64,000 bases of DNA, from the IMG/VR virus record IMGVR_UViG_3300012979_000041, positions 6,377 through 70,376 of that record; one strand, 5' to 3'. This stretch comes from a virus (Duplodnaviria; Caudoviricetes). Under the pieces are notes generated by a model. It saw only the letters and a program-made list of their open reading frames with translations. It did no database searches and was not told the origin of the DNA. This document shows, in pieces, positions 734 to 62,119 of the stretch (positions are counted from its first letter, which is position 1; each line of letters starts with the position of its first letter). A program made the position numbers and the translations under genes.

Positions 734-1162
734 GTGCGGTCAATGAGCGTCGCTATTATCAATTTGGCCGAGGAACTGAAAAGCAGGACCGAATGGCAAA
801 GAACTCCAGAACCTTTACTGTTGGAAAATTATAGCGACATGATCGTGTATGGTTTAAAAAGACTGTATATCGATACTGGCCGCGCACTGCAGTTTAAAGC
901 TGACTACATCAAAGAAGTCGATGGAGCTTAGATTTTCTCAGAGAATCTAGAGCTTGACGAAGAAGAATATGTGCTTATCTGTGCTCAAATCAATTTTTTC
1001 AAGAAAGTTCAAGCAGATGTAAACAACATCGTTGGTTATACAACAGACGCTTTAACTGTTACCAACGCCGATAAGCCGTATGTTCATCTTCAAGATACTA
1101 TCGATAAATTGGAACAAGAACGTAGAATCATCTACTATAAGATGGTGCGGTTTGCTTTATAA
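734..1162 (+). CDS. Putative head-tail connector/neck protein (1 in-frame TAG)
   Basis: ORFs 734..931 and 971..1162 are in the same frame, joined through TAG 929-931 (EVDGA*IFSENL); ends TAA. Confidence 0.65.
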
Positions 1163-1194
1163 GCAAAAAATGTGAAGGTTATAGGGTGAAAAGA

Positions 1195-1539
1195 ATGAAT
1201 GATTTTTCTGTAAAGATCGCCTACCGTAATCGCTCTTTAGAGAATGTAGGCGAAGAGACATATGATTTCGAACAATATTCGGAGATGATGAAGAGACAAT
1301 AGACTCGCATCATCGTGGATGTCGAAGATTTGCTGTATTATTTGCAAGATAATAAGTCCAAGGATGAATGGGACGAGGGAACGATGGTCAGGTTTCAGCA
1401 CATCAGACATAAGCTGCTGGATCAAGCCAACGCTATCGAACGACTACCTCGAAACCTCTATTATAAAGGCGTGAACTGCGCGAGCATTAGTTCGAGCGAG
1501 ATGGTTGCACGCATTATTGATTCTTTATCTAATAAGTGA
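1195..1539 (+). CDS. Hypothetical virion morphogenesis protein (1 TAG)
   Basis: ATG 1195, TAG 1300-1302 (MKRQ*TRII), ends TGA overlapping the next start. Confidence 0.65.
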
Positions 1540-8621: not shown

Positions 8622-8731
8622 ATTACTGCTCCTTTTGCAAGTATTAGGAAACTAAAAATGGTGCGTTCAATTAGTCAAATAAAATGATACCCATGTTCGA
8701 AGTAAAAGTCAATAAAAAAGGAGGAAATACA

Positions 8732-11700
8732 GTGTCAGAATCCATTGATTTAAAATAGAATTTTGATATTTCAAGTTTTCTGGGTCAACTTTCAAAAGCC
8801 GAGGAGCAAGTGTCCTCCTTGAAAGCTGAGTTAGAAGAAACTCCAGGTACTCCAAAAGCGTTAAACGCCGGTTTAGACAGAACTTAGCATACGATAAATA
8901 TGCTAGAGAAGAAGGCGCATGCTGTAAACAAGTTATCTGACGGTAGAAAAGATGCTGTTGTAGGAGATTTAATGGCTGGGCTTGAGGAAATAAATATGTC
9001 AACTCAGTTGTTTTCTGAAGGCGGAAAGTTTTCTACAAGCTTAGCGAAACAAATGTTTGATGGTTTTCCAGAGGCAGTAAAAAAGGAACTCAGTAGCAAC
9101 ACTAGAGAAATCGAAAAGCTGATTCGTTCTTCTTTGGGATCGATTAAGTCATTCGGCGTCTCTAATATGGCTCGAGACATTTTGATGACCGATCGAGCTG
9201 GGGAAATTTTCGGAAGAAGATTCAAAAAAACATCGGGTGATCAATTTAAGAAATATATTGAAATGTAGCTTCCTCATGCTCTTCCTGCTTATATGATGGA
9301 AGAATATCAGATGTTGAGCAAAGGAACTGTTTCGAAAATTAACGCAAGCATTCATCCGCATGAAATAATTCCTAAAGCCTTCCAAACGGCATTCAAGAAC
9401 AAAAACTACACATCTTCAGGTTCTTCTAATGGTTTATTCATGCAAGAAGAACAAAGGAAGATGCTGCGCAACTTAATCTCTGAAAACGATGCTGCAATGC
9501 GTGCTGCGGAAAAAGTTGACGGAATGATCCGTAGAAGCACCGCTGGCCGAGCGCAATTAAACCGAAACATCACACAGGCTCAATATGACCAGTTTAAATC
9601 GAACATGTGGAAAGATTGGGTTCTTAGGGCATCAGGTTCTCAATCAAACAGAGTCGATCTTTTTGCAGACAATCTGTCTGCTTCCGACGAGAGAAAACTT
9701 CTTTCACGTATGACCGGCAGCTCCGCTGGTCGAGTTTTGTCTGCTATGAACAGTCTTGATCCCTTTGAAACTGCTGCGGCGTGGGCCACGAGCACAAAGC
9801 AGAAAGGTTATGAGACTTTAAAAAAAGAAGCTAGAAGAGAACTAGAGCAATATGAGATTGCGAGATTTCGATTTGGAGATGTTTTTTCCGGTAAAGAAAA
9901 ATGGAGACCCGTTGCTCTGTCTGAAAGCCAGAACACTAGATTGCTTGGCTTGAGCGGCATGCATAATCAGTTCACGGATAAAGTTGCTGTACTAGATCTT
10001 GCTGGATATGATAAAGAAAATAAAGAACACCAGAAACTATTGGAGCAATTGAGCAGCGGAAAAGAAGTGTCTTTGCCAGGTTCGAATAAGAAATATATTG
10101 CTCAGAATCTTCATGGTACAGGACGTAACACAACGTTCAGATTGATCGAAGCTGAAGCGTACAAGGCAGTAAGAGACAGAGAAAAAGCGTGGCTCGAGCA
10201 ACAAGGCTTTGCTTTTTCTGGAAATAATTACTGGAATAACCTTGTTGGAGAAGATTATGTATTTGAAAGCGAAGAAGCTTTACGTAAACATTATGACGCT
10301 ACTGGAAAAGGTTGGACACCTGGTTATCAAGTGAGGTCACAATAGAAAGATAAGAACTTTGGTATTGTTGATTTTTCAAAGATAAGCGACGCTGGACAGA
10401 AAGCTAAATAGGCAGACGGACTTGCTTGGATGGCTAAAGGTATTTTGCCTGAAGGATCTATACAGGCAAGAATCGGTATCTCGGGCAAGGGTGTTGTTAA
10501 TGAAATGCCGTTTAAAACAATGGGAGATTGGGCAGTTAACGCAGGATTGATTAAACCTGGTGAAAGGTTTATTCTACCTGGGCCTCGCGGAGATGTTGAT
10601 GTTACAGATTAGAATGGCGTTTCAGACGTGTCTCAGGTGAAAAATATTTCTGCATATGGTAACTTTAAATCTGGCGAAGAAATGAACAAAGCTTTTACTG
10701 CTTTGATGCAAAGATATGGTATTTCTACTGTAACGTCTTTCGGCAACGCAGAAAGCAAAGTTGATAGTTTGGGCCATCAAGCAATGATGTTCATGAAATT
10801 GTCTCCTGAAATTGTGGAAAAACAGATGGCCGCTGCTGATCGCAGACTTAAGATGTTGGATACTGAAGCTGGAATTAGAGAATTCATACTGAGCGATCCC
10901 AACGATTACCTTGCGAAAATGCTTAGAGAAGGCAAAATCTAGCCAACAGACAATGTTATTCAAAGCAGAGTTCAGAAAGAAAAAGATAGTATCATCTCTC
11001 GTTTGGCGAGCGGTGAGTGGCTTGATTTCGACGGGAGTGTTTCTGGTTACAACCAAAAAGTAAATAAAACACTGATGACGTCTCTTGTTGAGTTTGGCGG
11101 TGGTTCTAGAGAAGAAAAAATCCAGAAACTCCGTAAGCTCATGAAAGATAAAGGTTTAACAAGAGAATATACAGACGATGAAATAGCTGGAATCTGGGGA
11201 TTAGGCGGAGTTAAAGGTGGCGCTATAGTAGATTTCTTGCGACCAGACGAGGAATTTGTTGCTGTAAACAGAGCACCTAACGGCATTGCACAATTTGTTT
11301 CTGGTAAAAATTATGCGAAACTAGCACGCGATGTCTATAAAAAGTTTGGAATTTCAACAAATGGCGTGTTCTTGTCTGAAGAAGATATGTTGACTTTAGG
11401 CGACGCGGACTTCGACGGCGACGGCGTTAAAGTTATGTATGGAGATACCGCACATGAAATGGGGCGGGCTTCGGATTTATACAACGAGATTATTAACAAA
11501 CTTGCCATTACTTCAAATGCTCAGCATGTGAAAGATAATAACGGTGTTTTAGGAAGTGTCACGGATACGCCTGAACAAAGAAGGCGTGCAGCTGAAGACA
11601 GTATTGCGGCTGTAATGGCAATGGGATTGACGTCTTCTGCAGGCGAAAAAGCGACCATGTTTGATTTAACAGACCCAAGAAACAGAGATATGTTGATTGC

Positions 11701-14700
11701 GGCTGTACAGTCAAATCCTGCATATTCCATTGCTACCGTTTTAGGCAAAAGAGGCGGACATGTTGAACTGACGAAAGAAATGTGGGCTGCTTCAAGGCTG
11801 GGTAAAACATGGCAAAAGTAGCCTAGCAAATATTCCAATCTGTTCAACGTAACCGGAAAAGATGATATAGATATTCCAGATGAAGAAGATATCTACGTTT
11901 CGGATGAAGGAATAAAAGTTAACCTGGCTCAATTAAGAGAAATGGAGATTGATAAAATCAATCTTCCTTCAGCGTATCAAGATTCAACTTAGGTTGGACT
12001 AAGAATGGCTTCGCAACTCGGCAGCTCTCCAGAGGGAGAAAAACGAAGACGAGCTGTTTTAGAAGCCCTTGACCGAGTTATTGGATACGGTGGCGTCGGA
12101 GATAAATCGAAAGCTCTTTTGCAGAATCTGCGATTCCTGAAATTAGGAATGGCTACAGGAGACAGAGGTTCCACCACTGGGGAAGAAGACGATGTTTTAG
12201 CTGCACAAATATCGGAAGCGTATAAGGAAGTCACAGATTTAGCAAAAAGTAAGATTATTGGCGGTGGCAAGGTTAAACTTGATGATGGAACGGAAAAGCA
12301 GTACGGAGAATATTTGTCTGAACTTCAGAAACAAGCCGGAATAGATGTTGCAAAAGCTTACTTGTATTCTTATGGCGCAACTATAAACAGAATAAAATCT
12401 GTATACGGAGAAGAAGAGGGCTCTAAGATTGCTGCAGACCTTGTCCAACACGAAGGTGTTGATATGCCGAATGCAATCGTGTCTTCTGCTGAACAGCTTC
12501 TTAATCCGCAGAAGACGATTGCTCAACAAGAGAATGCTGTTGCAACTAGCTTTAAAGGTAAAAAACCTAAGTCTCGGAAAATTAAACAAGCACAAAGAAA
12601 CGCGAAAAAAGTAGAAGAGGCAACGCAAGTTGTAGAAGAAAAGATAGACGACAGTATTTCGATTTTTGAACAATACGAAAAAATAAAAACATTCGAAGGT
12701 TCACTGCAGGCAGAAAAAGAACTTTCGGAGTATATTCGCCAGGTTTCAGGTAAATGGTATAAGACGCACGCAAAGGTTGATGAAGATCCTGAAAAATCTT
12801 TCTATGCGCTGTCTTTGTATGAGTAGCGAAAAGCTCAAAATGAATACGATATTGCTTCAACTCATGGTGATTCTACCGTATTTGGCAGCGGAACAGCAAC
12901 AGGAGAAAACCTGTTTGCTTCATAGCAAGGAATGGAAGCTAATTATTTCTTAGCTACCAGAGCCCATCTTACCCAAAGCGGCGAAGGTGCTTTGGAATCA
13001 TTGCGGAAAAGTGTCCAAGGCGTTGGGACCGAATTCGATAAGCAATAGGCTACTCTTGAAAAGTGGAGTTCCGAAGTTGAATCTCTTCAAAAACAGCTTG
13101 ACGCGTTCAAACAATCTCGAGAACAATATTCTTCGAAAGCGAATTCCGATCTTGAGGCAGATGCATAGGCAATTAGCGAACAAGAAAAGAGAATTGCCGA
13201 AGCTAGAAAGCTTGAAGAACGGGGAAGAGAAAATCTGTTAAGAAGTAACGATTTGCGGTTTTCAGAGAACATCGATCAATTTATGTATCAGCTTACTGGA
13301 AAAACTGCGGACAGACAAACAAAGATTAGCAGAGAAGTAGAATCAAGAAAAATGCAACTCGAAAGAGAACGGGCCGCGATGGAAGAAGCTCACAATAAGA
13401 AGTTATTATCTGATGAAGCATACGAAAAACTGCTTCCTAAATTCGATGAAGTATCCAAGTATATCGATGAAGAATATAGAAAAAAACTTGAAACTCAGTA
13501 TACAGATAAGATTCATAAAGAAGTGGCTTCTTTCATTCGTCACGGTGACCGCATGGATCTCGCTCATCGTCGCCGTGCAATCGACAACACGATGTACGGA
13601 CGATATCTGGCTCAGACAGAAAACGAGCTTGAGCAAAGACGTCATTACGACGAGATGGGAACTCTGAAGCTCGAAGAACTCAAAAATGCTCAAGCTCCGC
13701 AGACAGAAATAGATAAGCTCACTGAGTCATTAAATCGCAATAAAGAGGCTATGGAAGGTCTTGAAAAAGCTCGCGGCAAGCTTTCTGCTGGTTTCCAAAT
13801 GCTTGATGACGCGGTTACGCGTGTCATTACGAGATAGGGGAAACAGCTTCTGTCTAAAGCAATGAACGAGTTAAAGAGATTTACGATAGAATTCAACACC
13901 AACATGAAAGAAATTCAGACTGTTACGATGAAGTCAGATGAAGAAATGGTTCAAGTCAGAGAAAATGTTCTGAATGATGCAATAAAATATCGTACTTCAG
14001 TGTCTGATGTTTCTACCGTAAAGAAAGCGCTTTATAGACAGGGATAGAGCGAAAGCGAAGTCGACAGTAGAACTGGTAGTATTTTGAAATTCGCAAAAGT
14101 AACTGCAATCAAGACAGAGAATGCTACGAAGATTATCACAACAGCTTTGCAAAACAATCTTGTATCTACAGCTGAAGAAGCTATGGATGCTTTGGTTGCT
14201 CTTGGCGATAGTGCGGCAACAAGTGCCGATCAGATCGGTGATGCTATGCAGAAGTGTGCTGCTGCTGCAAAGGTCGCCGGAGTTTCTTATTCAGAGTTAA
14301 CACCAATGCTTACCGTTATGACCAGCATGACTCAGTTAAGCGGTAAGCAAGTTGGTACTGCTATGAATACCATTTTGTCGAGACTTCATAATGTTACCGC
14401 AAATAAATACACGAAAGAGATTAACGGCGAAGTTACTGCGTAGAACGATGTTGAATCTGCTCTGGGAACAATAGGTGTTTCTTTGCGAGATGAAAATGGC
14501 GGCTGGAGAAAATCTACTGACGTATAGGTCGACATTGCCGAAAGATGGCAATCTATGACAGACATTCAGAAATCTCTTGTGTCAACTTCCGTTGCCGGCA
14601 CCAGACAGGGAAATATGTTCCAAACATTAATGGAAGGCATGTCCGAAGATGGAGGAGAAACGTTTAGAAAATATCTCGAGCTAGCAGAAGAAAGTGAAGG

Positions 14701-17700
14701 AATTACAGATGGAAAATACGAAATTGCCGTAACGTCTATTGCTTCTGCTCTTGAAACTTTGACGTCTAATTTCGATCGGTTAGTTTCTAGTTTTGAATCT
14801 TCAGGCATTGCGACAAGCGTGCTAGATTTTGTTTCGGATGTCTTGAGCGGACTATCTGATTTAAATGAAAATGTTCCTGCGTTAGGAAGATCATTAACAA
14901 TGTTGATTCCTATTCTTGCTACCGTTGCCGGATTAGCAGTTTTGATCAAGAGCAAAGGAAGTACAATATCTCTTCTTGCAGGCATTGGCGTTGCTGGAAT
15001 AGGCATGTTTGCCGCTTCTCAGATCGGAAAGTTTACGAATGTTTCAACTGCAAATAATGCAGAATACAAACAAAAAGTCGCAGAGCAAAACAGCCAATAT
15101 ATCGCTGAAGTAACAAAACGACAGCAAAGAAGAAAAGAACTCATTGAAGAAACCGTTGCTCTTGGCAAACAATACGATGAATTGGGATCTGCAATGGATT
15201 CTACTAGTTCTGAAAAGTTTGAAAAGAATCTAAACACGCTGATTACTTTGTTCCCTGAATTGAAAGATAATATTTCGGATGCAACAAGCGTTCTTTCACA
15301 ATGGAAAACGATAACGGACGAAGCCGCTGTTTCGGTAAATAATTTAACTAAAGAAGAAATTGCACATGCGGAAGTGAAAGCCAAACTGGATGCAAGCACA
15401 AATTTCGACGATTATGTGCAGCAACAGCTTGATCAGGCTAATGCAGATTCAATTGGCATTTCTTATGATTCGCTAATTGGTTTGGCAAATGCGCAGCCAA
15501 TCGGTCGCGAAACAAACATGTATTCGTTTGATCATTATCGCACGTTGTATGAGGCAGGCTTGCTTGGTTCTGATACTGCTCAAGAACAAGCGATAAGAGA
15601 CTTGTTTGATTATCTTTACAAAGGACAAGAATTCACTAATGCAACTTCTGAAGCTATCTTCTCTGGATATGCAAGCAATTGGTTTAATTGGTTTGGCGAA
15701 CCGGAAATCTATACCAACGGTAGATATAACGAACTTTTTGCTAGAAAATATTTTGAAGCCGAAGTTGTGCCAACACCAAAACAAGCAAGAATCACAAAAT
15801 TTAATCCTTTTAGTTCTGAAAGAAATATCGCAGATTTCCTTTTGTCTGATTCGTATGATTATTCCGATTCTGTTATTCAATAGCTTTCACTGCTTTATGA
15901 TCTGTACGCTCACGATATTGGACTAGACAGTATTTATAGCAATAAAGATGACTTCATTAAAAACATACAGTCAAATGATAATCGTCTAAAGAATTTTGAC
16001 AACGCTAATGTGTTGAGGAATTTATCCGAACAAATGTATTAGGCAGTTAATGGACAGCATGAAGGATTAAATATGCTGTATGAAGAACAGCAAAAAGCTA
16101 TCGATCTTGTGTATGGAGACAGTGTTTCTCACTACATTAGTGAATATGTGCCTGATTACCGCTTAAATCACGCAGATGATGAATTATTAGCTCTTGCCGT
16201 AAGAAAAAAATTTGTTGAATCCATTACAGATCCAGATACAAAAGTTATAGACTGGAGTAAAGTAAACGCTACGGATATGAACGCTGTAATTCCGATTATG
16301 TATGAACAAGTCCTCGAAGAAGGAAAAGAAGGTTATCTCGACATAACAGACTGGCCTTATCATTAGGGTGAAGAAGGTTTTGAATCTTTAGAACAAGCGC
16401 AAACAACGTTATCTGAAAGATACTCTGAAGACAAAGAGGGATATTATGCGGCATTGCGCGAATAGAAAGATAAAAACGAAAATCCTGCGTTTACGCCTGC
16501 CGACTCATAGGCTAAGCAAGCGTATTTAAATTGGGAAGCAAATAACGCTGGATATATTGATCAACTAATCGAGCTTTCGAAATATGCTTCTGATTCGAAC
16601 AACATTACAGAGTTTGTCGACAGAATCCCAGTTGATTTCAACAATCTAATCGGATTGCTTAGTCAGAACGAGACGCTCAATAAAGCGTGGGCTGCCACGC
16701 AAGCTGGCACAATGGATTTCTCGTTATTTAGAAAAATTCTTCAAAGTCAGATCGCTGGTTCCAATTTGTTAGATCACGAAGATTATAAAAATATGCTTCC
16801 TTCTTTCTTTGGAGAAGGGTTTATTTCGTCTTTATCAGAAGGAACTTACGATACTACTTCTACTGAAAACGTTGGTACTCTGATGACAGCAATGAGTAAT
16901 CCTGCGATGCTCGAACAGCTTGAGGCTCTGAAAAGTGTGTTCCCAGGTATCACTGAAGTTATCAATGCTATGACTTCTGGTGTTGAAATGAACGCTGAAG
17001 CACAGCAAAAACTAGCAAATATCATCATGTCAGAGACAGTTCGTGCGTCTAAGAAGTTCGGAGACAGTACCGAAGAAATTGCTGACAATATGGATCAGTG
17101 GGCTGGGGATGCGAAGTCTGTTGCATCCGCAATGAGAGAAATGAACTCTGCTCTCAGCAAAGCCGCGAATAATCAATTCTTTAGAGATAAGTATTTTAAA
17201 GGCGACAGAGATGAAGAGACGATGAGTGCCATTGCTCAGATGACTGGATTCGACGAGGATACAATCAAAGAGCAGCCAGAGATGGTAAAGAAAGCCCTCG
17301 AAGCAGCGCTAGAAGAAGACTATACTCTCATCGAAGAAGAGCTTAATGCTTTCAGTGAAAACATTAGTTCCAATCTTGATTATGATCAGCTTGGTATTCA
17401 ACTGCCTCAAATCGAAGGCGAAGCTCAGCCAGTCGACTTATCAACAGCTATCAATGCTATGACAGGCGATGCCGCAGCGCAACTTCAGCAATTAGCTGAT
17501 TACCTTGCTCAAATGGGCGTCGATGCTCATCTGGCGATCTCTTCTGACGGCGAGAAGATGAGTGCAAAAATTGTTGTTGATAGCATCAAAGGCAGAAAAG
17601 GCACAGCGAGTAGAGGCGGTGGCGGTGGTGGTGGTTCTAAGAAATCTGCAGCTGAGACTCTTATGGAAGACCTTTCCAAAAAGCAGGCTTCAAGAGAACA

Positions 17701-19396
17701 CATCATTAAAATGATCCAGTATCAAGAGACGAAGTATGAGAACCGTGGAGAGTTTGGCAACCTGAATAACATGATTGCTTTGGAAAATGATGCGCAAAAA
17801 GAATACAGATCAACACTTGAAGGCAATCTTGATTCTCTGAAAAAACAATAGGCTCAAACCACAAAGAACTCTGACGATTGGTATAGCCTGAGAGAAGAGA
17901 TTCTTAAGACCGAGGAAGCTATCGAAGAAGTAGATATCGCTATCGAGGAAAACATCGAACGCATGGAAGAAAATGAAGAAGCAATCCGACAGACTCGCAT
18001 TTCTCTGGAAGAGATGGTAGAAGCAGAGATTAACGCCAGAATCCAGAAAGAACGAGACATGCTTGATGGCTCTGTTTCCATGCAAGACACTATCACCGAA
18101 GCAATTCGACAGCGCTATCAGGACGAGTGGGATCTCGTAAAGCGAGACATTGAAAAGAAAAAAGAAGCTCTTGAAGAAGAGAAGAACCTGATTGATGAAA
18201 GATTGAACGCTCGTAAAGAGGCCGAAGACGAAGCGGAGAAATACGCACAACTGTCTGAATATAAGAGACAGCTTGCAATGATCTCTATGGACTCTACGAG
18301 AACCAAGGATGCTGCCGATCTGAGAAAGAAGATCGCAGACATCGAGAAGGATATTGCTTGGGATATTGCAGAGGACGAGGCAGACGCTACAAAGCAGCAG
18401 ATTGACGATCAGATCGCGGCTTACGATGAGTATGTCACTGTTGGCGATGAGGACATGCAGGCGTTCTTAGAGAACGCGAATAATTTCGCTGACGAAATCA
18501 AGAACGTTATGGGCTTGTCTCATGACGATCTGATGAATTGGCTGAAGCTCAATGTTCAGGAATACGCTAACTCTTTAGACGATGCTAAAAAGCAGATGCT
18601 TCAGACCTGGGACGATCTGTATAAACAGATGTACGGAATTACCGATACATACTGGGAGCAGATTAACCAGATTCTATCTTCTAAAGATAACTTCTTAACC
18701 TATATGATGCAGAGCGACGAATACATCAATGCTTCCGAAACAGATAAAGCCTCCATGCTTTACGAGTGGTCTGAAGCTTACGACGATTATGTTGCCGCAC
18801 TTAAAACAGGCGCTGAATACAGCCACGAAGATGTAAGCGTAGACAATATTGGATTGAGCGCTGCGCCTTCTAAAACACCAAGCAGCACACCGACAACCGA
18901 AAACAAGTCGACAACAATAGTCGGGCAAGCCGCTAACTGGTTGAAAGAAACAGCCAGTAACGTTGTGTCTTATTTCAATAGCGGTAAGGCTGCTGAAGAT
19001 GTCAACACTACTGTGAAAAACGGCGTCAATGCGCTTTCTAATCTGGTTAAGAAACTGAATATTCCAGGCTTTAGTTCAGGCGGCGACGTAGACTATACGG
19101 GCTTAGCAATGGTTCACGGATCTCCAAGTAGACCGGAAGCTTTCTTAAGCGCAGACGACAGAGTGTTAGTAAGAAACATGATTGATGCTATGGGATATGT
19201 TCGGTATGTCCCGAAGAGATTTGACTTCGATGTTGATAGCGGCAAGAACGCACAGATCGAAGAAGTCAATGTGGTGATCAACCAGGCTCAACTAAATAAT
19301 GATGAAGATATCGAGATCGTTGCGCAGAAAGTTGGTCAAGCGTTTGTCAAAGAACTTTCTAAATCTGGAGTACACACATCTAAATACTCATTCTAA
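8732..19396 (+). CDS. Giant tail tape measure protein (3554 aa) with N-terminal two-barrel RNA polymerase domain (~21 TAG)
   Basis: AAGGAGG RBS + GTG; 13 ORF-track fragments share one frame and every internal break is TAG; TP901-type TMP core ~13860-14700; C-terminal FSSGG..GLAMVHG..PEAFL; RNAP motifs at 10463, 11267 and 11402. Confidence 0.85.
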
Positions 19397-43878: not shown

Positions 43879-45759
43879 TTAAACGTCTGAAGACGCATAG
43901 AAACGCTTACGTTCTTCCTTTTGCCGTGCTTCGCTAAAGGAAGAAACAAGCTTAAGATATCCGATGACTCTTGTAGCCCAGTCGATTTTAGCGCTACCGC
44001 ATTTAGGGCAGGTGTTTAGCTTTCTCTTGCTGATGTGTCCACAGTCTCTACATACCGTATTAGGAATATTGAACGTGAAATAGGGACATCCTGTTTTGAT
44101 GGCAATATCAAGCAATTTTAGATATTGCTCTTTGGACAGATGTTCATTCAAGTTGCAATGCAATGCAGAGCCGCCATCCAGATATTGAGTAAACTTCTTG
44201 CCGTGGAGAATAAACTTTTCTACGGGGTCTGTTTCTTCGTCTTCTACGAGGTAGAAATAACTGTTATAACATTCTCTCGGGGCAACATATCCGTCTCGAG
44301 AATCCCAATAAGCATTCTTAACACCAAGATTTTCAGCAGGAACATATTCTGTGTTAAACATGCAATTTTCGTCGCGATCTTCTTTATTTAATCTGTAAGT
44401 CGTTCCAAGAACATCATTGATAAACGTTTCATAGTTTTTATCTGTGCTTCTGATTTCACAACCCATAAACTCGGCAGCTTCGATAAGACCGTTGATGCCT
44501 ACGGTCAGATACTGTCTGTCTGGCGCAACAAAGCCTGCGTCATAGAGAGGCAACAGTCTAGCGTTGTATCTGTCAAGAAGAATGGAGTTGAAAGCTTTCA
44601 GATATTTGTGAACTCGTTTGACAATATCTGTAATGTATTCAAGCGTTCCTTGATATGTGCCAGAAGGATTTAGCTTCCAATACTCTTGTACGACTCTATT
44701 GAAATTGATAGTCATAACACATTTGGAACCCGTAGATACACCGCCGGCTCCAAGAGTATAAGAGAATTGGTTATCTTGGATCTCGTTAGCGAGTCTGCAA
44801 CAGCTAGCGAGGCTATCGACCGAACTGCTGCGATACAGGAAGAAACTATGACCTTCTGCCCACATCTCCGCTGCGAAATCTTTCCAGTCCAGATCAACAT
44901 ATCCGTTTCCATCATCGAGAAGGTTGACTGTTTCGACAGGGAAGGTGAGTACCTTGCGTTTGCGTTCCTGATTGAACCATTTCATAAAGCGCTTTTGCAA
45001 CCAGTTTACGCTATCCCAGATAGGAACTGTGCCGTCTGGAAAGCAGAAATCTTCGAACATTCCTTCGAAGTATGGCCGATCAAAATAAGCGATATTCCAG
45101 AAACAAGCCTGATTGCCTCTTGCTGCAGCAGGCTGGTTGATACTATATACAACTTGCTCAAATCCATCTGTAATTACTTTGTCGATGGTACGTTGACGAG
45201 AAGATAGATCAACAATGGTATCTGCCTTCGTATAATAATCGTCGCCGTATTCTTTTCTGATGAAGTAATCCAGATACATTAAATACTCTGGTGTAGCAAC
45301 AGCTCCAGCAAGCTGAGCTGCCGAAGCAAATACGAAATTAACAAAGCTTCCATTGAAAGATTGCTAATTCGTAGGTGCGGTGGAGGTGCCACCAAGCCCA
45401 GTGATTCCATGCAGAAGAAAAGGATACATTGTGACACTAGCACAATAAGGCTTGCCAACAACGGCTGTTTCGTCGTGCCGGTAAATGCGATGCTTCTCCA
45501 GATCGTCAATATATTGGGCAGCAAGCTCGCGGTCATACATTTCCGTAATCCGCTGCTGCATAGCCTATCGATTCAGAGCAATAGACTCTTTTTTAAACAT
45601 TTCAGCTTCCATTGTGGCAATGGATTTCATTTCCACATTGGCATTGGAGTCGACTTCTGACCCGCTGGCAGCATTCGATGCGGAAGCATATTTAGAAATA
45701 AAGCTCTAATAAGGCTGACGGTCAGCATATCGGAAAGACTTAACAACGGTTTCACTCAT
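43879..45759 (-). CDS. nrdD: Anaerobic ribonucleoside-triphosphate reductase, class III (3 TAG)
   Basis: KPYCAS, SCCRL, PAENL, C-terminal CxxC..CxxC and RVIGYL glycyl-radical motif; APTN*QSFNG. Confidence 0.92.
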
Positions 45760-45988
45760 TGTTGTCACCTCTCAGATTTATAATTCCTTGCAGGTTATAT
45801 ACCACAACATATTCCGATGATTCGTTCTGGATTTCTAGCATCGGTACAGTTTTAAACCCTTTGGCAATGGCAAGGTTGGTATCCGCGATTTTTTCAAACG
45901 GCATACCGATTTTTTGCTAATGTGCTACGGCTACTTCGCATTTCGGGCAATGCGGAGCAGTATATAATTTTGCGATTGGTTTTTCCAT
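45752..45988 (-). CDS. Glutaredoxin/NrdH-like redoxin (1 TAG)
   Basis: CPKC active site, GFKTVPML cis-Pro motif; VAH*QKIG. Confidence 0.8.
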
Positions 45989-46139: not shown

Positions 46140-46424
46140 TTAATCTTCGTCGGGGTAATCGGGCCCGTCGTAATAAGTGGCTGGAGAATGTTTGCCAGGA
46201 AGATCGGGAAAAATCTCTTCTACTGGTAACCCTTCAGAAACACACCAATCATAGAAATCCATCTGAGGAAGATTCTTCAAAGCTTCGACAATTTCTTCAC
46301 GTTTTTTCTCGAACTCTGAAGGCGTCATTTCCTTAATTTGTTTGACGACAGCAGGGATAACAGTTTTAGAGTAGGACATTTGTTCTTCCATGTATGAGAT
46401 GTATTTGCCTTCGTTCGTAAGCAT
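46140..46424 (-). CDS. Hypothetical protein (94 aa)
   Basis: TAATG-coupled to thyX, ends TAA; GC hairpin downstream. Confidence 0.6.
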   Translation of the reverse strand: MLTNEGKYISYMEEQMSYSKTVIPAVVKQIKEMTPSEFEKKREEIVEALKNLPQMDFYDWCVSEGLPVEEIFPDLPGKHSPATYYDGPDYPDED

Positions 46425-47080
46425 TACGAGCTCTCCTTTGTTTGTCCGTAGACAGAGTAAAGCTCGTCGAATACAACAGGAACGGCGTCGTGCGCAAGAC
46501 AAAGCATCTGAATTGCCAATTCTCGCATCTGAGGATATGCTGCTTTAGAACATCTCAAATTGAAGAAGTGCAGCCATTCACGCTAATTGGCCTTCATAAT
46601 GATTCGACATGCAGTAGAGTTCGGCTAAACTTCACGAGCTTGCTGCGGTTGCATACCAAGCTCGATCATGGTTTTATATGTGTCTTCCGCATTCTGCATG
46701 GACTGTTCCCACTACAGGTCCAAAATAGGCTACGAATTATCCGTATTATGCCAAGTGGGATATATAAAGGTGATATCTCCTGTTTTTGCTTCCTGAATGT
46801 ATCGTTGAGATTCTACACAGAATGAAGCAAGTCGATGACGTGTGATTTCTGCCTATACTGCTCTGGAAGTAGTCTAGTCAAAAGTCATATCGCCAAATTC
46901 TAGAGGGGATTCGTGATGGCGCTACTGCTAATTTTCGATAAATTTAAAGCAACTGTCTTCAGTAATTTTGTCTTGGCTTGCGTAGCAATTTCGTCCTGCA
47001 TACTCGCAAGCTTTCTAGAGTGCCAGACCAGATTCTGGCGTGGGCTTAAGAAGCTTCGCGCTTTGATTGATCTAAATCAT
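46424..47080 (-). CDS. thyX: Flavin-dependent thymidylate synthase (10 TAG; invisible to the ORF track)
   Basis: HESPLEF, SRAV*AEITRHRLASFCVESQRY (RHRx7SxR), AREV*PNS, KAN*REWLHFFNLR, AYPQMRELA. Confidence 0.92.
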
Positions 47081-47097
47081 CTGTACTCCTTTCTTGC

Positions 47098-47547
47098 TCA
47101 TAAATCGAGCATGCCGTCTTGTTCTTCGAGTTCTTCATAATCTTCGTCTATATCTGTTGTCATGTCCGGCATATCCTCGTCCAATTCTGGATCTGGAGCT
47201 TCGTCAATTGCGTCGTACACCTTTAGACGTACGGTTTCGCGCTAACGTGCCGCTCCTGGTTGTTTTGAATTGGATTTCTCGATTGCTGACATGATTCGAG
47301 ATACCGAAAGAGGGGAGGCGACAACAGAGCCATTGTCCAGGAAAATAGCTGACTTAACAGCGCTTTTACCAGCTGCGTTAATCAGCGTTCCAGCTCTCTT
47401 TTCGTCTTTAATGACCCGACGAGCTTGATAAGACTCGGTAGACATAACTGCTACGATACGGGTTGCGCAGATAGCTACATCGAACTAACCGTTGTCGGAA
47501 GTTTTCTGCGCGACTTTGATAAATCTTAGGGGAAGCATGTACCCCAT
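47098..47547 (-). CDS. RemA/DUF370-like protein with acidic tail (2 TAG)
   Basis: RIVAVMSTESYQARRVIKDEKRAGTLINAAGKSAVKSAIFLDNGSVVASPL resembles the DUF370/RemA core; Asp/Glu-rich C-terminus. Confidence 0.65.
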
Positions 47548-48064: not shown

Positions 48065-51000
48065 TCAGTTCGCAACATGATAATCGGTTACCCAATATTC
48101 GTATTCTCCAGGTATTGGAATTCTGTTTCCGTTTTGGAATAACGTTCGCTGTCTCGATATTCCGTTATCAATGATGATACAGTCGTTCTCTGTAAACGGA
48201 TCTTCGAAGAACCTTTTCTTCGAGATTTTAACGTTTCCTGAAGTTCCTCGTTTGACACTGTATAATTTTACTTTTACTCCGTATGTTGTATCGACAGAAA
48301 CAACAAAGTATAAGTTTGCAGGAGCATTTTCGTTCGAAGTCAAACAAAGACCGATGTTTTCGTTTTCAGACATCAATTGATGGCCTATCGAAGTGTCCTC
48401 GTTTGGAACTTTGCTTTCGATGGCTTTTAATTCTGCCATACGTTTACAGATCGTTTTCGAAACCTACGTCTTGGTAATTTTGTTTTTACCTTTAAAGAAT
48501 TCCTGGTACACCGTTGCGAGCTTTTTCTTGCCGCCATACTGACTGAAATATCCTATGCTTATCTACACTTCGATTTGACGCGTATTAAGACAAGTATTTA
48601 TCAGCAAATGATGAAGGACGTCTACGAAAGTAGGTAATTCATATTTCGAAGCATCGTATAAGTCCTGTGCCGCCTGAGGTGAAATGAATTTGATGGAGGA
48701 CAAAGATTGAGAAATTGTTTGATTTTCTTTGTCAACAAACCAGTCTCTATTATCTTCACCGAATTGACCTGGTTTCATCCGAATACCTTTGTATTTTTTC
48801 ATTTCAGCTATAATCGCAGCTATCTTGTCTTTGTTGCCCTTTTCCGTATAGAGCTTTAACATAGTGGTATACAGTTCGTATGGATAATGAGCTTTAAGCC
48901 AAGCCGCATACAAGCTATCGCAAGCCATGCTGTAAGCATGAGCTGCACACTTTTACACCGTCGGTTTCCCGATATTTAGTAGCGGAATAGACTATGTCAT
49001 CACCCGGATAACCGGGGCACGGCGCTTCGGAAGCAGGAGTTGCACCTGTTTCCTACTCCTTTTCAGGATAGTCGTTACACCTTCTCGAAAGTATTCGAGC
49101 TTGGCACGGAGTTGACATGAGAATAGTTTTCAGACTTTCTTTTAGTTTTTCTCCGTTAGCATATTGAAAATACACACCTTACATTTGTAAGTTCACCGTG
49201 TTTTCGATACGCGTTACCGCGTAAAGGTTCTATATTTTAAAACATATAAGAAGCCGCGTCATTGATGATCGTCCATATTTTATCGACAATATCGGCAGCT
49301 TCGGCGTCGGAGGACCCTTCTTCTTCTTTAAGCATCTTCGTAAAGCCTGTTTCAAATCGTTCTCTAAAGGAAGCAACTTTGTCGGCTTTCTTCTTCTTGA
49401 TGGCTTTAATGCACACATATGCGTCTGCGGCAGAGATTCCTGCGGATTGAAGGATCGTCAGAATCTGTTCCTTATATACCGTCGGTTTCCCGATATTTAG
49501 TAGCGGAATAGACTATATCTTCATCCTAGTAGAGGATGCGTGGCTTTTCCATGGTGGAATTTCACCATCCATGTACTCCCTGTCGGGATAGTCGTTACAC
49601 CTTCACAGCTCTTCTGCTGTGCTTGGCACGGAGTTGACATGAGAATAGTCTTCAGACTTTCTTTTAGTTTTTCTCCGTTAGCCTCTTAATAAAGAGACAC
49701 CTCGATTAAGTTAACCACGTTTTTTCGATGCGAATTACTTCGCAAAGCGACAAATCAATTATCGAACATCAAGAACGAGTCTGGTATTTCTTTCGTCTGT
49801 AACAATTTGTCCAGAGAAGGGATTCCATAAGAGAATCTGGTTCTGCTGACAAACGTAGATAACATTGATTTGAAACCTGGTCGAACAGCCGCGACAAAAG
49901 CAGCCAACTCAACGACATTCTTTGGTTTGTATTGCATGACGCGTTCGGTTGTCTTTTCTTTTTCGCACTGATTTAAGCCCATTGTAAAACCGTTGGCGTA
50001 AAGATTCCAAACTTCCTTGTCATCTTTGACTGCCTCTAAGAGTTCGTCAACAGACATTACAGGTAAGCCGCAAGCTTCAAAACCGTTGGCAATAGTCTTC
50101 ACTACGTCTACTCGGAGAAAGTCCGCTTTCTAATACCCGTAAGTATCGGCAGCAACACCGTCGATATAGGCCGCATATACAGCTTCTTTATTGCCTGTTT
50201 TTGCTTTGACACGAACAATACCTATCTCTTCTCGAATGTCTTTATCCAACAAGAGGTGAGCACACGGATGTGGAACAATACTGTTTACGATTCCTTTGTA
50301 TTGTTTGCTGTCTTCGATCTATTGTAAGTATTGTGGTTCCACATAAGATTCAACAAGGACATGTTCGTCGACATTATAGTCTGGATCATCCTGGTTGTTC
50401 TCTTTTGCGTGCTTAACATCAAGTTCATAGTTCTGAATCTGCTTAGAGATAATATTTGAAGTTTGGAAATCCTAATTTCTCGCTCTGGCAAGAAGCTTGA
50501 AGGCCGCCTATGTCTTAGCCGTACCGTAGGCGATCATTGGCTAACAGCCATATTCGCCGAGAATTTCTTTACCGGCTTGTTCAAACGCAGGAACGTTTGC
50601 CATGTTCAGATCCAAGTCGGGCAAAGCGCCGCTTTCCAATCGCTCGCGACTGATAAAGCGTTCAGGATATAGTTTAACTGGGCAAGTGAGGCGATTTACA
50701 GAAGTAAAACCCTAGGCAAAATTGGTTGCAAACGACACGCCTGAACCTCTGCCTGTGGTTGTTAATATACCGCCATACTCCTATCCTTTATCGACAATGT
50801 CTTTCATTGCGATGAAGTAATCTGCTGTGCCTGTCTCGGCAACTGCATTCATTTCTGCGTGCTAGTCAGACGCTTCTTGAGGAGATGGCATGCGAGCCTT
50901 TTCGATATATCCGTCGCAGCACTGTTTCTTATACTAGAAAGTGCGTTCTTCCGGCTTCATATTTTTGCGGCTATTAGGTATCTTCTTTTCAGTAGTAAAA

Positions 51001-51836
51001 GAAACGCCTTCAAACTCACGCAGTAACAATGTGTTTTCAAAAGATTCTTCAATTTGTGCTTTCGAGAAAATGTTTTGTTTTTGAAGTAAAGCAAACGCCT
51101 CTTCTGCCGTTGGCTAATACAAATCGAAATCATCTTCATATCCGTTGTTGATGCCGGAAGATAGGAGAAGTTCTTTTCTCAAAAGAGCGTCTTCGTGATT
51201 GATATAGTGACTATCTGTACCATATATCAAAGGCCAATGATGCTTTTGATACATCTTAAGAATCTTTTGATTTGTAGACTACTGAATAAGTTGGGGATGG
51301 TGTTGTATTTCGAGAAAGAAGTGGTCTTTGAAAATCTCAGCCTATTGACAGGCGTAGTTTTCTCCATCATCATCTTTGAAAATGCCGCCAACGCAAGCAG
51401 TAGTACAAACAAACTAATTAGGATCGAGCCGGGAAAGCTAATCAAAGTCTAGTCTTGCGCAACGGTAAAAGCCTGATAAATTGGCTTCAGACAGAACAGA
51501 ATTAAGCTGTCGCAATCCTTCATTGTTTTTTGCTACTAAAACAAGATGGAAACGCCTATCATCTTTTAAATCTGGATTTCTGTCTGGAACGAAATATGCT
51601 TCTGCTGCGGCAAGAGGCGTCATAGTGAACGAATCGTCGCTATATTTTGCAGCGACTTCAAATTGTTTGTATACGTTTGATCTGTTTCCATGTTCGGACT
51701 AACATAGAACATGATGCCCACGCCTGCGATATTCTTTCGCGTAGTCTTCTATAAATACGGTAGAATCAGGCTGGGTCTAACAGTTACTATACGTTGAGTG
51801 AACATGGTAGGGTTCGAACTCGAGCCTTTTGACCAT
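48065..51836 (-). CDS. dnaE: DNA polymerase III alpha subunit, spliced: 51836-49761, 49470-49240, 48949-48065 (~18 TAG)
   Basis: PHP domain (HVHSTYS, SEHG, FFLEIQ, DSH), GRGSG, PDLDL, HPCAH, KADFL; splice joints FD|EQIL and YMF|CAAHA restore conserved motifs. Confidence 0.92.
48950..49239 (-). ncRNA. Group I intron 2 of dnaE (290 nt, ORF-less)
   Basis: U at exon end, terminal G; GTAACGACTATCC and CATAGTCTATTCCGCTAC core elements; in-frame TAA at intron start. Confidence 0.88.
49471..49760 (-). ncRNA. Group I intron 1 of dnaE (290 nt, ORF-less)
   Basis: U at exon end, terminal G; GTAACGACTATCC and GAAGATATAGTCTATTCCGCTAC core elements. Confidence 0.88.
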
Positions 51837-58084: not shown

Positions 58085-58237
58085 GTTACGCTAAGCGTTG
58101 TTCTCGTTTTGTTTCGCTACTCGCCAACATGAACGATTTTCTGATGTTCCTTGTGATTTACACTAGATATAGGAGGGGATAATGATACCGTTTTTCTAGT
58201 CTTCCTCTGCAACGATGCCGAGATAGCAATACAAGCG

Positions 58238-61200
58238 TTATCCACCGTCCTTTACTTTGTTTTTGTAGTACTTTTTGTTTACAGTTTTTCGCAGATTAGA
58301 CGAATGCTCTTGTTGACAACTTAAGCAGCGGCATTGTCTTGAGTTTTTTCTTTCGCAAATCGCTCCGCAATCTATACATTCAAAGAAACCTTTGGATTCA
58401 TGAATACAAATATGTCCGCTTGCCCAGTTCGGTATTTTCGCACCGCAATTTGAACAAACGTAGTATGAAGTTAAATTGGCCTTTAGATGCTTAATGGCAA
58501 TGTCTCCATATAATTTCCAAAAGATTTGTTTGCAATTGTATTTATTGAAGTTTTTTCCGGTAAACAAATGTTTAACCATAACAGGATAGGTGTTCTCAAG
58601 ACTGCCAAATTCTTCTATCTAGCGATGTTCTATGTCTTCTTTGACAAAATCCAAACCAAGAATATTGTATCTTTCGTTATTCTCCTATGCCAGGTTGAAT
58701 ATGATCGTGTTTGGTTTGTTACTGTCATTGGAAGAAAGAAAAATGTCAATAATTCTATTAGCTGCGTTTTGATCGAATTGTTTACGGGCATCTGGTTTAG
58801 GCATCTACATTTGCCAATTGAATGGTGGAACTCCAGGAATTCTACTACTAATTTGTTTAATATTGTCGAATCGAGAACAGATTCTATTCATGACGGACTC
58901 GTTGGGTTTGCAATAAGTTTTTTGATCCTCAGTGCATACATCCAGAAAGCGTCTGCCATTTTTTGAATACTGGAAAAAATGAGGCATACGTCCAGAAGGA
59001 CCGCCTGTTGCTTTGTTGATGCGTGAAAGCATGGCAGGATAATCTTTGTAGCCGTTGATTTTTCCTGTTTTTGCAGCATCGATTACTTGGTTGTTGTAGT
59101 AACAAAGCATAGCCGCAGCAAATCGATCGGGTTCATCGCGGTTCCACAACTTCGTCAAAGCATTGCTTACTTGACCGATGCCGCTATATTCATGAGCTCG
59201 TTTCAAGCCTTTGAACATAGTTTCTCTCGACAGCAACTCAGCGGAAGCTTTGTTTGCATCATAAAACAGAGGAACCACATCGTATTTCTTTAGGTTTCGC
59301 TCTGCGATTTCTACGATAAGCGGATCTACAATAACGTTCAGCTGATCACCATCGACATCGAATTGTAGAATTCGAGATATCAGATCGTGGCAGCTGGTAT
59401 ATATGCCTTTAGTGTAAAACCAATGATAGATAGCCGGGTCATGGACGATTGTACGAACAGCGTGTTCCATATAGAGCATTGAAAATCCCTGGATTTCTCC
59501 AGGGAGTAGACTATATCATCATCCTGCAGTAGGATGCGTTGCGCTTCGGGAAACAGAATTTCACTGTTCCCTACTCTCTTCCGAGATAGTCGTTACACCT
59601 TCTGATGTATCATCAGCTTGGCACGGAGTTGTCATGCGATATATGTCGGCTAATGCACTAAGGAGCTCGTAGATAACGTTTTGGTTATACCATATTTGAT
59701 ACAATGGGATATTGTGTTCTTCGCAATAACTAACTTTAAGAGCATCAGTTTCTTCACGCTGTTGTTTGCCAAATTTTTGGTTTCGTTTTATTGAATGTTG
59801 TTCTCCTTGATATTCGAGAACAGCAAGCAATCGCTCTTCGTTGTCGTAGAAAGCGAAATCAAATCGCAGCAATCCGCCGCGTGAACTAACGAGATTCGGA
59901 AAAGAAACTTCTTTCTTAACTTTGAGATCGAGTCCATTGAGAAATTTCGTAATCGTTTCTTCTGCAAAAGATTGAGTACAGCCACAGCTCTTTACAAGAC
60001 CTCTGAGTAAATGATTGCTACGTACGACTGTTTTAGACCCACATTCGCATTGACATGTCCACATTGCTTTGCGTGTTTTCTCGTCGTTTCCAGCGAATTC
60101 TATTACTGTTAACTTACCAAACTGTTGGCCTGTTAAATCTTGTTTTCGAGCTTGCGCACTTGCTTTTGCAGGAATCTTAGTTTTAGCCCACGCGGAGCTA
60201 GTTTCTCGATGAAGGCAGCCGCAGCTTTTCGTATTGCCGTGTAAAAGATGAGATCCGTCACCGATATATTGGTTTCCACATTCACATTGGCACAACCATC
60301 GAGTACGAGATCGACCGTTTGGTTGGATATAATTTGGCAGTCGACTAATAACAGTAAGTCTACCGAATGTTTGTCCAGTTAAGTCTTTAAGTTTGCTCAT
60401 TAGTACACCTCCTTTCGTTTAGATTTCTCCGTTAGCCGCAAGAATTCTTGCGACACCGTTTATACGTTCACAACGTTATTCGACTTGCATTGCTGCAAGA
60501 AGGCACCTCTGTTGATGCGGACTACGTAACACATCTGCTTTATCGTATTGCTCATAGACTTTACAAGCTACTTCACCGTCTTGAAGCTAACCATGCGGCT
60601 CTTTGATTCCGAGAAACCAAAACTCACAAGCTGCATACATGTCAGGTATTGCAAACAAACGTTTATTCCGGCATTTAATTTTACCGGAACGTGCATCCTA
60701 CACCCAGCGCCGCTTAATATCTTTCAGAGTATTGCGAGCATATGCTTCGCGCAGCAACTCTGGATAAAAATATAAAGCTTGTCTATATGGAGAATCAGAG
60801 TTTTCTTCAGCGTTTAAAACACGAAGCATTGTATCCTTATCTTCGCTGATTGATTCGATTTTCTGCTTAGTCGGACGAATAAACTAATCGATCTCGCGAT
60901 CTGAGAAATCCGTAAGCGTTTGAATCATCTGATAGTTTAGATAAGTATCGGCAATATAGTCTTCTTCATAGTTTGTTGCACACTAATGACAGCCACATTC
61001 TTTGAAACATCGCTTATAATGATCCCAATCGTCATAGTATTTGGCTAGTTTGAATTGAGACTCTGTGAAGATGACACGAATGTTCTCTTCAGCGAGATGG
61101 TGTTTGACTCCCCAATAATCTTCTATCACCGGTTCGATGCCGTGGTGTTTGCAGAATTCGAGATAATCGAAACTGGTCAACAATCCTTTAATCCAAGGCG

Positions 61201-62119
61201 CTCTGACCATGAAATTACTGCGGCTTACGGAAGGAAGCATCATTCCAATACCATCAGTATGATTGATGTTCACCGTTCGTATGCCTCGTGTCATGGTATA
61301 GTTTGGTTCGATGAAATCTAAGACGCCTGTAACAGGAGCTTCGAAATCCTTAATAACAATACATTCATCGATCGTGACGTCATTCCATTCATCAGTTGCG
61401 GAGCAGGGGAGTGCTTGATAAGCCAACAGTTTGTTGACGTTAATGCCTCCCTTTGTGTTTAGCGTTTCCCAATCCATGCCGCATTCCAGTTGTTTGTGGA
61501 TTTTTGCCCACATATCTTCTGAAACACACTGAATTTTATCGGTTCGCTATTGTCCTGCTGACGCAGTGGCAACTCTGTATTTCTTAACAATCAGACTTCC
61601 ATCTGGTTGAAGGATCGGCATGACAAATCCGTCTTTCACAAGCTGCTCAAGAAGATCGAGAGATTTCCATTTAACGATGATTTTGTCGAACGTGATATCC
61701 TAATGATTCAAACCCATAGCGCGGCTTTCCTCGGAAGAAAATTCTGCTATGCGTTTTGACATTTTCAGAGTCCACCAAGTAACTCCAGCAGGCCAGGAAA
61801 CTTCACCGTCTTCGTTGGTGAAATATTTGTAGTCGAGTACCTTGTCCAGTTGAACGTTTCTCGGTGTACCAGCATGCTTAGATATTTGTTCGGCTAGCTT
61901 GTTTTGCTAGCAGCTGCGTTCATCGCACTATCGAATGTAGTCTGGATTGTTCTTTAAATCTTTCGGCTTCAACGTTGCCCGCTAAACAGATATTTCATTT
62001 AGTTTAGTAAGAAGATCTTGGTAGATTTCTGTTTCGTCAGCGGTAAACAAATCGAAAGTTGATATTGTCATTAGTCTGATCTGATTTGACAAATATGATT
62101 TCTTGCTGATATGTATCAC
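58238..62119 (-). CDS. YonO-like single-subunit two-barrel RNA polymerase, spliced: 62119-60515, 59476-58238 (~12 TAG)
   Basis: TASAGQ*RTDK, DGIGMMLP, FMVRAPWIKGLL, LRSPH|LYMEH, QFDVDGD catalytic motif (59345-59359), C-terminal Zn fingers. Confidence 0.88.
59477..60514 (-). mobile_element. Group I intron in the RNA polymerase gene, carrying a homing endonuclease
   Basis: U/G boundaries; GTAACGACTATC and GATGATATAGTCT core; removal restores RSPHLY. Confidence 0.88.
59561..60400 (-). CDS. Intron-encoded endonuclease: two DLTG..FG.LTV..WxCxCxCG..SCGC repeats plus Vsr-like/EDxHD-type nuclease domain
   Basis: Repeated Cys-rich DNA-binding units; LRFDFA...LEYQGEQH; ends TGA inside the intron core; no TAG. 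Confidence 0.8.
   Translation of the reverse strand: MSKLKDLTGQTFGRLTVISRLPNYIQPNGRSRTRWLCQCECGNQYIGDGSHLLHGNTKSCGCLHRETSSAWAKTKIPAKASAQARKQDLTGQQFGKLTVIEFAGNDEKTRKAMWTCQCECGSKTVVRSNHLLRGLVKSCGCTQSFAEETITKFLNGLDLKVKKEVSFPNLVSSRGGLLRFDFAFYDNEERLLAVLEYQGEQHSIKRNQKFGKQQREETDALKVSYCEEHNIPLYQIWYNQNVIYELLSALADIYRMTTPCQADDTSEGVTTISEESREQ

Follow-up and report, generated by a model that had tools for sequence, protein, structure and literature searches.

UAG as a very probable leucine codon in an SPbeta-like phage whose relatives carry leucine-type tRNA(CUA) genes

We analysed a 64,000-nucleotide stretch of DNA (the window), which comprises bases 6377-70376 of the 70,376-bp linear IMG/VR virus record IMGVR_UViG_3300012979_000041 (CheckV completeness 59%) and, judged by its gene content, belongs to an SPbeta-like temperate siphovirus. 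Its genes use TAG as a sense codon, and comparison with homologues places the TAG codons at leucine (Leu) positions. We consider it very probable that UAG is a leucine codon in this phage. The likeliest mechanism would involve a phage class II tRNA-Leu with anticodon CUA, charged by the host leucyl-tRNA synthetase (LeuRS) and competing with release factor 1 (RF1). Such a Leu-type tRNA(CUA), the presumed decoder, was found in relatives only.

TAG is a sense codon throughout the contig

Long non-overlapping open reading frames (ORFs) cover 64.7% of the contig under NCBI table 11 and 90.9% when TAG is taken as sense, compared with 72.1% for TGA and 76.6% for TAA as the sense codon. This bears out the original prediction made from the window, which had held that the genes are interrupted only at TAG and end at TAA or TGA. 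Specifically, 45 of the 68 ORFs called with TAG as sense end at TAA and 23 at TGA, and approximately 165 in-frame TAG codons are spread over 49 of them, on both strands and in both the virion and the replication half. The count of 165 in 68 ORFs is approximate because the ORF set is mechanical: near 38355-39535 a few calls are on the wrong strand, and some ORFs run on into introns. Genes with in-frame TAG, holding ~150 of the contig's ~165, extend from 734 to 62119 on both strands. Reading through TAG joins fragments into long genes, including 8684-19396 (3570 amino acids, 23 TAG), 20541-26207 (1888 amino acids, 10 TAG) and the mechanical ORF 49755-51836 (693 amino acids, 16 TAG). The density of TAG in the final 25 codons is close to that in the ORF bodies (0.0071 and 0.0074, respectively), thus giving no sign that TAG still ends some genes.

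The same codons recur in independent assemblies. The closest relative, a Logan contig from another sample (L004) whose ThyX is 96% identical to that of the window, could be aligned at 58 window TAG sites and has TAG at 56 of them; these 56 identical positions show that the in-frame TAGs are not an assembly artefact. A more distant relative from a third sample (L001, an ENA assembly seen in two further runs), with a ThyX ~75-78% identical, has 23 window TAG sites in common. Together, these data confirm that the in-frame TAGs are real and far above chance expectation.

TAG positions correspond to leucine positions

We examined the residues that homologues carry at the TAG columns. ThyX, the flavin-dependent thymidylate synthase at 46424..47101 on the minus strand (PF02511, E 4.5e-44), contains 10 TAG codons. 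Among 120 full-length homologues, Leu occupies three of these columns in 110, 103 and 115 sequences; it is the top residue at six of the ten columns and the runner-up to isoleucine (Ile) at a seventh, while glutamine (Gln, Q) comes solely from the six closest relatives, where Q stands for TAG. The tail-associated lysin/hub (Tal) at 20541..26207 (+), a protein whose homologues contain PF06605, shows a similar picture: in blastp columns Leu is found in 114/115, 110/117, ~103/115 and 85/~110 sequences at four TAG sites and is the top residue at six of ten TAG columns, and a 94%-identical relative has Q at TAG. In the DnaE-type DNA polymerase, which matches the Pfam PHP, DNA_pol3_alpha and finger domains, most TAG columns of exon 1 (49761..51836, minus strand, 16 TAG) have Leu as the top residue, and at the first of the two TAGs of exon 3 (48068..48949, minus strand) all 23 informative relatives have Leu and the 24th has TAG. 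The three TAG columns of the anaerobic ribonucleotide reductase NrdD (43879..45768, minus strand; PF13597, E 8.5e-89) contain Leu in 13/15, 10/14 and 5/13 sequences, the last with five further TAG.

A Codetta-like test was then applied, in which all ORFs, with X at TAG, were compared by tblastn with 84 related loci obtained through ThyX. The test decoded 61 of 61 sense codons correctly, and over 47 informative TAG columns it favoured Leu (+37.3 nats) and disfavoured Ile (-35.9 nats) and Gln (-78.6 nats), as the original prediction would have it; Gln was the top residue in two of the 47 columns. Since the aligner and the close relatives favour sense codons, the test was rerun as a fair control after masking nine control codons as X and excluding the recoded relatives. 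Under these conditions TAG gave 0.90 nats per column for Leu, which lies inside the range of ordinary codons (ATA 1.0, GAG 1.12, CTA 1.24, CAG 1.31 and TTG 1.57 nats per column). As a positive control, the same script returned Gln for Phassvirus-like loci carrying a Gln-type tRNA(CUA), and it returned Leu for six other loci carrying a Leu-type tRNA(CUA).

Codon pairs with recoded relatives give the same answer. Opposite the window's TAG codons, L001 has TAG 23 times, Leu codons 19 times (TTG 5, CTA 4, CTT 3, TTA 3, CTC 3 and CTG 1) and other codons five times; in the reverse direction, TAG of L001 stands opposite Leu codons of the window 15 times and opposite CAA once. The syntenic relative G009 has Leu codons at 45 aligned TAG sites, TAG at 12, Ile at 8, methionine (Met) at 6 and Gln at 3, and the structural half alone shows the same pattern (Leu 18). 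Such exchange of TAG with all six Leu codons fits synonymous drift, whereas TAG read as Gln would predict CAG and CAA. The latter codons were found opposite TAG twice in L004, and three and four times in the two directions with G009.

Some of the examples on which the original prediction was built fared less evenly than its general reading. All of the TAG positions that it gave and that we recomputed (46625, 46583, 46853, 50130, 51699, 30340 and 28957) were correct. Its ThyX motifs do have Leu in the closer family, but in distant ThyX proteins of the PDB the SRAVxAE site is Thr and the KANxREW site is Phe or Tyr. It had also aligned TAG with Leu between the two copies of an internal duplication in the 989-amino-acid protein at 27469..30438 (+; ~410 amino acids duplicated, 6 TAG). 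The duplication is real, with a Smith-Waterman local score of 738 versus 37 +/- 5 for shuffles, and it went unreported by self-blastp at E 1e-3. Two of the TAGs concerned face Leu; the example was nevertheless selective, because the other two of its four TAGs face Glu and Ser.

Relatives carry a leucine-type tRNA(CUA)

A tRNA(CUA), which had been named as the expected decoder, was absent from the window's contig but present, in Leu-type form, in two syntenic relatives. The 102-kb record behind L001, which we traversed by exact protein look-ups, contains an array of 14 tRNAs, the first member of which is a tRNA(CUA) (L103:5886-5966). As called by ARAGORN, it is 81 nucleotides long and has A73 as its discriminator base; the variable arm is long, and the D arm, with a stem of three pairs, resembles that of tRNA-Leu. 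The tRNA scores 51.6 bits against the Rfam tRNA model, for which the gathering score is 29. Its identity is 62-71% to tRNA-Leu(UAA/UAG) of phages and to other Leu-type suppressors, compared with 42-52% to tRNA-Ser, 45% to tRNA-Tyr and 51-57% to Gln-type suppressors. The anticodon loop (C32 U33 CUA A37 A38) keeps the A36-A37-A38 motif of UUR-reading tRNA-Leu.

The second relative, G009 (92 kb, 76% complete), is syntenic with the window, most genes being collinear and 45-83% identical. Its 15 tRNAs, at 44-54 kb, include an 84-nucleotide Leu-type tRNA(CUA) at 49228-49311. By synteny the window's end corresponds to ~62-63 kb of G009, and the array is therefore expected 9-19 kb past the contig end, in the missing 41% of the genome. 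An exact look-up with the last gene product of the window, aimed at extending the contig beyond the window's end, found no record. With 81-84 nucleotides the relatives' tRNA(CUA) genes are of class II, which rules out a tRNA-Gln body (class I, ~72-75 nucleotides), and by structure and similarity they are leucine-type amber suppressors. A complete relative with the standard code (G003, 111 kb, with terminal repeats) has seven tRNAs, among which the anticodon CUA is absent. Genes for a release factor (PF00472) or a class I synthetase (PF00133) were found in none of G000, G009 and G001, all of which are incomplete records.

In the mechanism that we propose, a phage-encoded class II tRNA-Leu(CUA) would decode UAG in virion, replication and transcription genes, with TAA and TGA serving as terminators. 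Its gene would belong to a tRNA array on the portion of the genome that the contig lacks. The host LeuRS would charge this tRNA, which would then contend with RF1 of the host for UAG codons. The anticodon is not among the identity elements used by bacterial LeuRS, and tRNA-Leu(CUA) mutants of Escherichia coli (supP / Su+6) insert Leu at amber codons; charging by the host LeuRS is a natural assumption for these two reasons.

Several observations were made around the tRNA arrays. L103:7977-8054 has an eight-base anticodon loop, given by ARAGORN as 'cata', and reaches 54 bits against the Rfam tRNA model; a tRNA called at G009:53745-53818 has the two-base anticodon 'tt'. These calls may be wrong, or the two tRNAs may have loops of an unusual form. 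Past the point that corresponds by synteny to the window's end, and near the tRNA array, a recoded relative carries genes (L101:8662-9786 and L101:11793-13614) for a reverse transcriptase (RVT_1), for a NadR-like protein (CTP_transf_like + AAA_28) accompanied by an NMN transporter, and for a ThiF-family protein; the reverse transcriptase is possibly part of a diversity-generating retroelement. In the Phassvirus-like loci, where TAG is Gln, a second tRNA(CUA) of 91-94 nucleotides, in which the anticodon arm is followed by a long insert (L021:6309-6399 and L025:6307-6400), lies beside the Gln-type suppressor of 73-75 nucleotides.

Distribution and hosts

We surveyed other sequences with a pattern made of the D arm and the CUA loop. 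The strict D-arm pattern missed the suppressor of G009, whose D loop is one base shorter, so the following counts of Leu-type tRNA(CUA) genes are lower bounds: at least 5 IMG/VR contigs; 38 of the 43 metagenome contigs with a match; and, among contigs of species-representative metagenome-assembled genomes (MAGs), 9 of the 10 that matched. Six of these ten MAG contigs belong to Clostridia, Clostridiales or Ruminococcaceae, and come from sheep, goat, rumen or human gut. In many of the survey contigs the tRNA(CUA) adjoins homologues of the window's ThyX, NrdD or DnaE fragments. The gene prfA scores above the curated cut-off in four of five such MAGs; those hosts read UAG as a stop, and RF1 is a competitor with which the suppressor has to contend. 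In the ThyX tree, the window's clade (window, L004, L003 and L011) and a clade of 16 members carrying Leu-type suppressors fall in one well-supported group of 30, with standard-code phages placed between them. As this is a quick tree of a single gene, it is compatible both with two origins and with one gain followed by losses.

A near-identical 86-nucleotide Leu-type tRNA(CUA), with the acceptor stem GGGAGC, was seen on several metagenome contigs (L111, L136, L139, L146, L152 and others). Their G+C content ranges from 0.41 to 0.62, and several of them gain little coding density with TAG as sense; sparse use of TAG may account for this pattern, as may dissemination of the tRNA across unrelated phages. 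L126 (JACCDN010945057.1), with a G+C content of 0.24, also has a Leu-type tRNA(CUA), and its coverage rises from 0.47 to 0.73 with TAG as sense, making it a possible unrelated TAG-recoded element.

Alternative readings of TAG

A number of points weigh against leucine as the sole meaning of TAG and against the proposed decoder. The contig (70 kb, 59% complete) has no tRNA gene by ARAGORN or Rfam apart from the 3' half of a tRNA-Trp(CCA), and the decoder is consequently taken from relatives that are 45-83% identical in protein. The suppressor of L103 has an A31-C39 mismatch at the base of the anticodon stem, and the identity of these tRNAs was judged by similarity and known identity elements rather than by an isotype model. 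The TAG columns are also less dominated by Leu than those of TTG and CTA, Leu being the top residue in 50-57% versus 70-89% of columns and its mean fraction 0.44 versus 0.57-0.58. Mixed decoding or relaxed sites are conceivable, given that the columns of some TAGs hold Lys, Asp or Ser.

These columns lend some support to a reading in which TAG is sense but ambiguous, with several tRNAs, another hydrophobic residue (Ile, Met or Val) or partial termination involved. Ile, Val and Met are indeed the next commonest residues aligned with TAG, and the presence of RF1 in the MAGs with sister-clade prophages leads one to expect competition from termination. Additionally, the +4 base after TAG is T in 13% and C in 25% of cases, versus 20% and 18% after Leu codons, a marginal difference that hints at context selection; in E. 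coli, a shift of this kind (T-poor, C-rich) works against termination by RF1. Nevertheless, Ile as a whole is disfavoured by 36 nats, each relative's array was seen to have one tRNA(CUA), of Leu type, and under frequent termination, essential genes containing 10-23 TAGs could not yield their products. We regard ambiguous decoding as improbable.

Glutamine (NCBI table 15), which is assumed for recoded phages and used by public gene callers, is a still less credible reading and, in our judgement, very improbable. The public proteins of the closest relatives match only with TAG = Q ('with_TAG=Q'), but this Q is a convention of the gene caller and hence no evidence for Gln; the few CAG and CAA codons aligned with TAG are the other point in its favour. 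The columns speak for Leu and strongly against Gln, TAG swaps with all six Leu codons, the same method does recover Gln in the Phassvirus-like loci, and the relatives' tRNA(CUA) has a Leu-type and not a Gln-type body. The reading of TAG as Leu in the original prediction is thus upheld by the columns, the codon pairs, the Gln-returning control and the tRNAs of the relatives.

The absence of any recoding, through assembly or sequencing errors or through decay of a prophage full of nonsense mutations, can be practically dismissed: no supporting point was found, the genes are interrupted by TAG and never by TAA or TGA, the positions recur in the contigs of the other two samples, the TAGs of essential genes fall in conserved Leu columns, and the matching tRNA is present in relatives.

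Uneven use of TAG among genes

TAG accounts for 8.8% of Leu+TAG codons overall, and its use is overdispersed among genes, the observed dispersion being reached in 0 of 5000 binomial simulations. TAG-rich genes, by share of Leu+TAG codons, are those for ThyX (40%), the 172-amino-acid ORF 57716-58234 (36%), a RuvC-like resolvase with 6 TAG (42449..43111, minus strand; 27%), DnaE exon 1 (22%) and exon 1 of the RNA polymerase (17%). TAG-free genes include a tyrosine integrase (36059..36979, plus strand; phrog_1, E 6.8e-60), which has no TAG among 30 Leu codons, as well as those for ClpP, a phosphoesterase, NrdG, the exonuclease and SSAP, together with the ORF 59561-60400 within an intron; the small-ORF block 62285-63975 is also free of TAG. 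Avoidance of TAG by lysogeny genes is only partly true, because a second tyrosine integrase (33037-34041) has three TAGs.

This uneven use would be consistent with a translational timing gate, by which the TAG-free genes (integrase, ClpP, NrdG, exonuclease, SSAP and the small-gene block) could be made before the suppressor is present. In a broader view, UAG = Leu would be a natural code variant of bacterial viruses, absent from phage papers and from the code tables used for prokaryotic viruses; a broad family of SPbeta-like temperate phages infecting rumen and gut Clostridia would employ it by means of their own tRNA-Leu(CUA), with more than one gain or loss inside the family, and the contrast between TAG-free and TAG-rich genes would be a gate tied to the suppressor; we judge the chances of this whole picture to be evenly balanced.

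Relation to known genetic codes

No report of TAG = Leu in any phage was found in the full-text literature that we could search, mostly outside subscription journals, in agreement with the novelty claimed in the original prediction. What would be new is the amino acid (Leu) and the type of tRNA; stop-codon recoding driven by suppressor tRNAs is already known in phages. TAG is read as Leu in NCBI tables 16 and 22, which apply to chlorophycean and Scenedesmus mitochondria. The assignment of UAG to Leu is shared, but those are green-algal organelles, whereas here it concerns a tailed bacterial virus, with a presumably standard-code host and an unrelated origin. With supP / Su+6 of E. coli, the relatives' suppressors share the tRNA-Leu body with anticodon CUA and the A36-A37-A38 loop as in UUR-reading tRNA-Leu. 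Those are laboratory mutants with partial suppression, whereas here the tRNA would be a conserved natural gene on which the genes of a phage lineage rely.

Known recoded phages with suppressor tRNAs read TAG as Gln (code 15; crAss-like phages, Lak, Garnet/Topaz and phAss-1) or TGA as Trp (code 4) (bioRxiv 10.1101/2021.08.26.457843, PMC10607447, PMC11210395). Among phages that differ from the host code, only TAG-to-Gln and TGA-to-Trp were seen, and TGA-to-Gly occurs in phages of code 25 hosts (Borges et al., bioRxiv 10.1101/2021.08.26.457843). Predicted Sup isotypes comprise Gln, Trp, Ile and Tyr, with Leu absent (PMC10879173). TAG recoding has been handled as table 15 (PMC11210395, PMC13037316), BK025033 is a published genome re-annotated with table 15 (PMC10607447), and in huge phages 'code 16' served as a gene-calling placeholder, the residue being left unresolved (Al-Shayeb et al. 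2020, PMC7162821). With these phages, the present phage shares in-frame TAG in essential virion and replication genes and a low coding density under table 11 that is restored with TAG as sense; its relatives share a phage tRNA(CUA) within a tRNA array. As in those phages, no phage synthetase or release factor was found in the incomplete records searched, and with Garnet and Topaz the present phage shares one integrase without the recoded codon. It differs from the code 15 phages in having Leu instead of Gln and, in its relatives, a class II Leu-type tRNA body instead of a Gln-type one.

If this reading is correct, the natural repertoire of viral code changes is wider than thought, and LeuRS, which ignores the anticodon, would be easy to hijack. 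Public proteins of such phages would be wrong, with Q in place of L at ~0.7% of residues (10 of 224 in ThyX), errors that harm homology searches, structure prediction and phylogeny. In a temperate phage, the differences in TAG use from gene to gene would offer a tractable case for recoding that times gene expression, and natural tRNA-Leu(CUA) genes would be ready parts for leucine amber suppression in Bacillota.

Gene content and other features of the window

Pfam and PHROG profile searches give the gene set of a temperate siphovirus of the SPbeta type. The siphovirus tail module consists of the giant tape measure at 8684..19396 (+; PHROG tape-measure families, E down to 5.9e-30), a distal tail protein (Dit) and the Tal-type hub. 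Further genes encode PhoH, ClpP, dUTPase, NrdD/NrdG, ThyX, the DnaE-type polymerase and a DnaB-primase, together with an SSAP/exonuclease pair, YonJ_N and a YonO-like single-subunit RNA polymerase. The latter is encoded on the minus strand in exon 1 (60515..62071, 9 TAG) and exon 2 (58286..59476, 3 TAG), with matches to phrog_8308 at E 1.4e-118 (exon 1) and 1.1e-45, and exon 2 also has a weak match to PF05183 (RdRP). This weak match prompted us to consider a crAss-like affiliation, which was rejected on account of the siphovirus-like tail and the identity of the giant protein as a tape measure. The YonO-like RNA polymerase, YonJ_N, DnaE, the giant tape measure, Dit, Tal and the integrases are shared with SPbeta-like siphoviruses of Bacillota; SPbeta itself uses the standard code, in contrast to the sense TAG of the phage described here.

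A fragment resembling the 3' half of tRNA-Trp(CCA), from the anticodon arm to the acceptor end, lies at 37029-37083 (minus strand), just downstream of the TAG-free integrase (Rfam, 14.7 bits). The fragment is a probable attP core, which would direct integration into a tRNA-Trp gene of the host. It had no match in five Clostridia MAGs when up to 3 mismatches were allowed, nor in 401 genomes sampled from the class of those MAGs with 2 mismatches as the limit. The 989-amino-acid protein with the internal duplication matches no Pfam family; it gives a weak match to phrog_16164 (function unknown), as does the neighbouring ORF 26651-27454.

Group I introns were matched at five places: 54642-54976, 49480-49760, 48950-49239 and 59477-60514, all on the minus strand, and 4195-4346 on the plus strand. 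The matches score under the Rfam gathering score, with E-values from 4e-8 to 2e-3. Introns of this type divide the essential genes for the DnaB-primase (two exons), DnaE (three exons, with exon 2 at 49240..49479 on the minus strand flanked by two of them) and the YonO-like RNA polymerase (two exons), all three of which are unsplit in the relative L001/L097. The 1038-nucleotide insert in the RNA polymerase gene contains the TAG-free ORF 59561-60400, whose 279-amino-acid product is probably a homing endonuclease.

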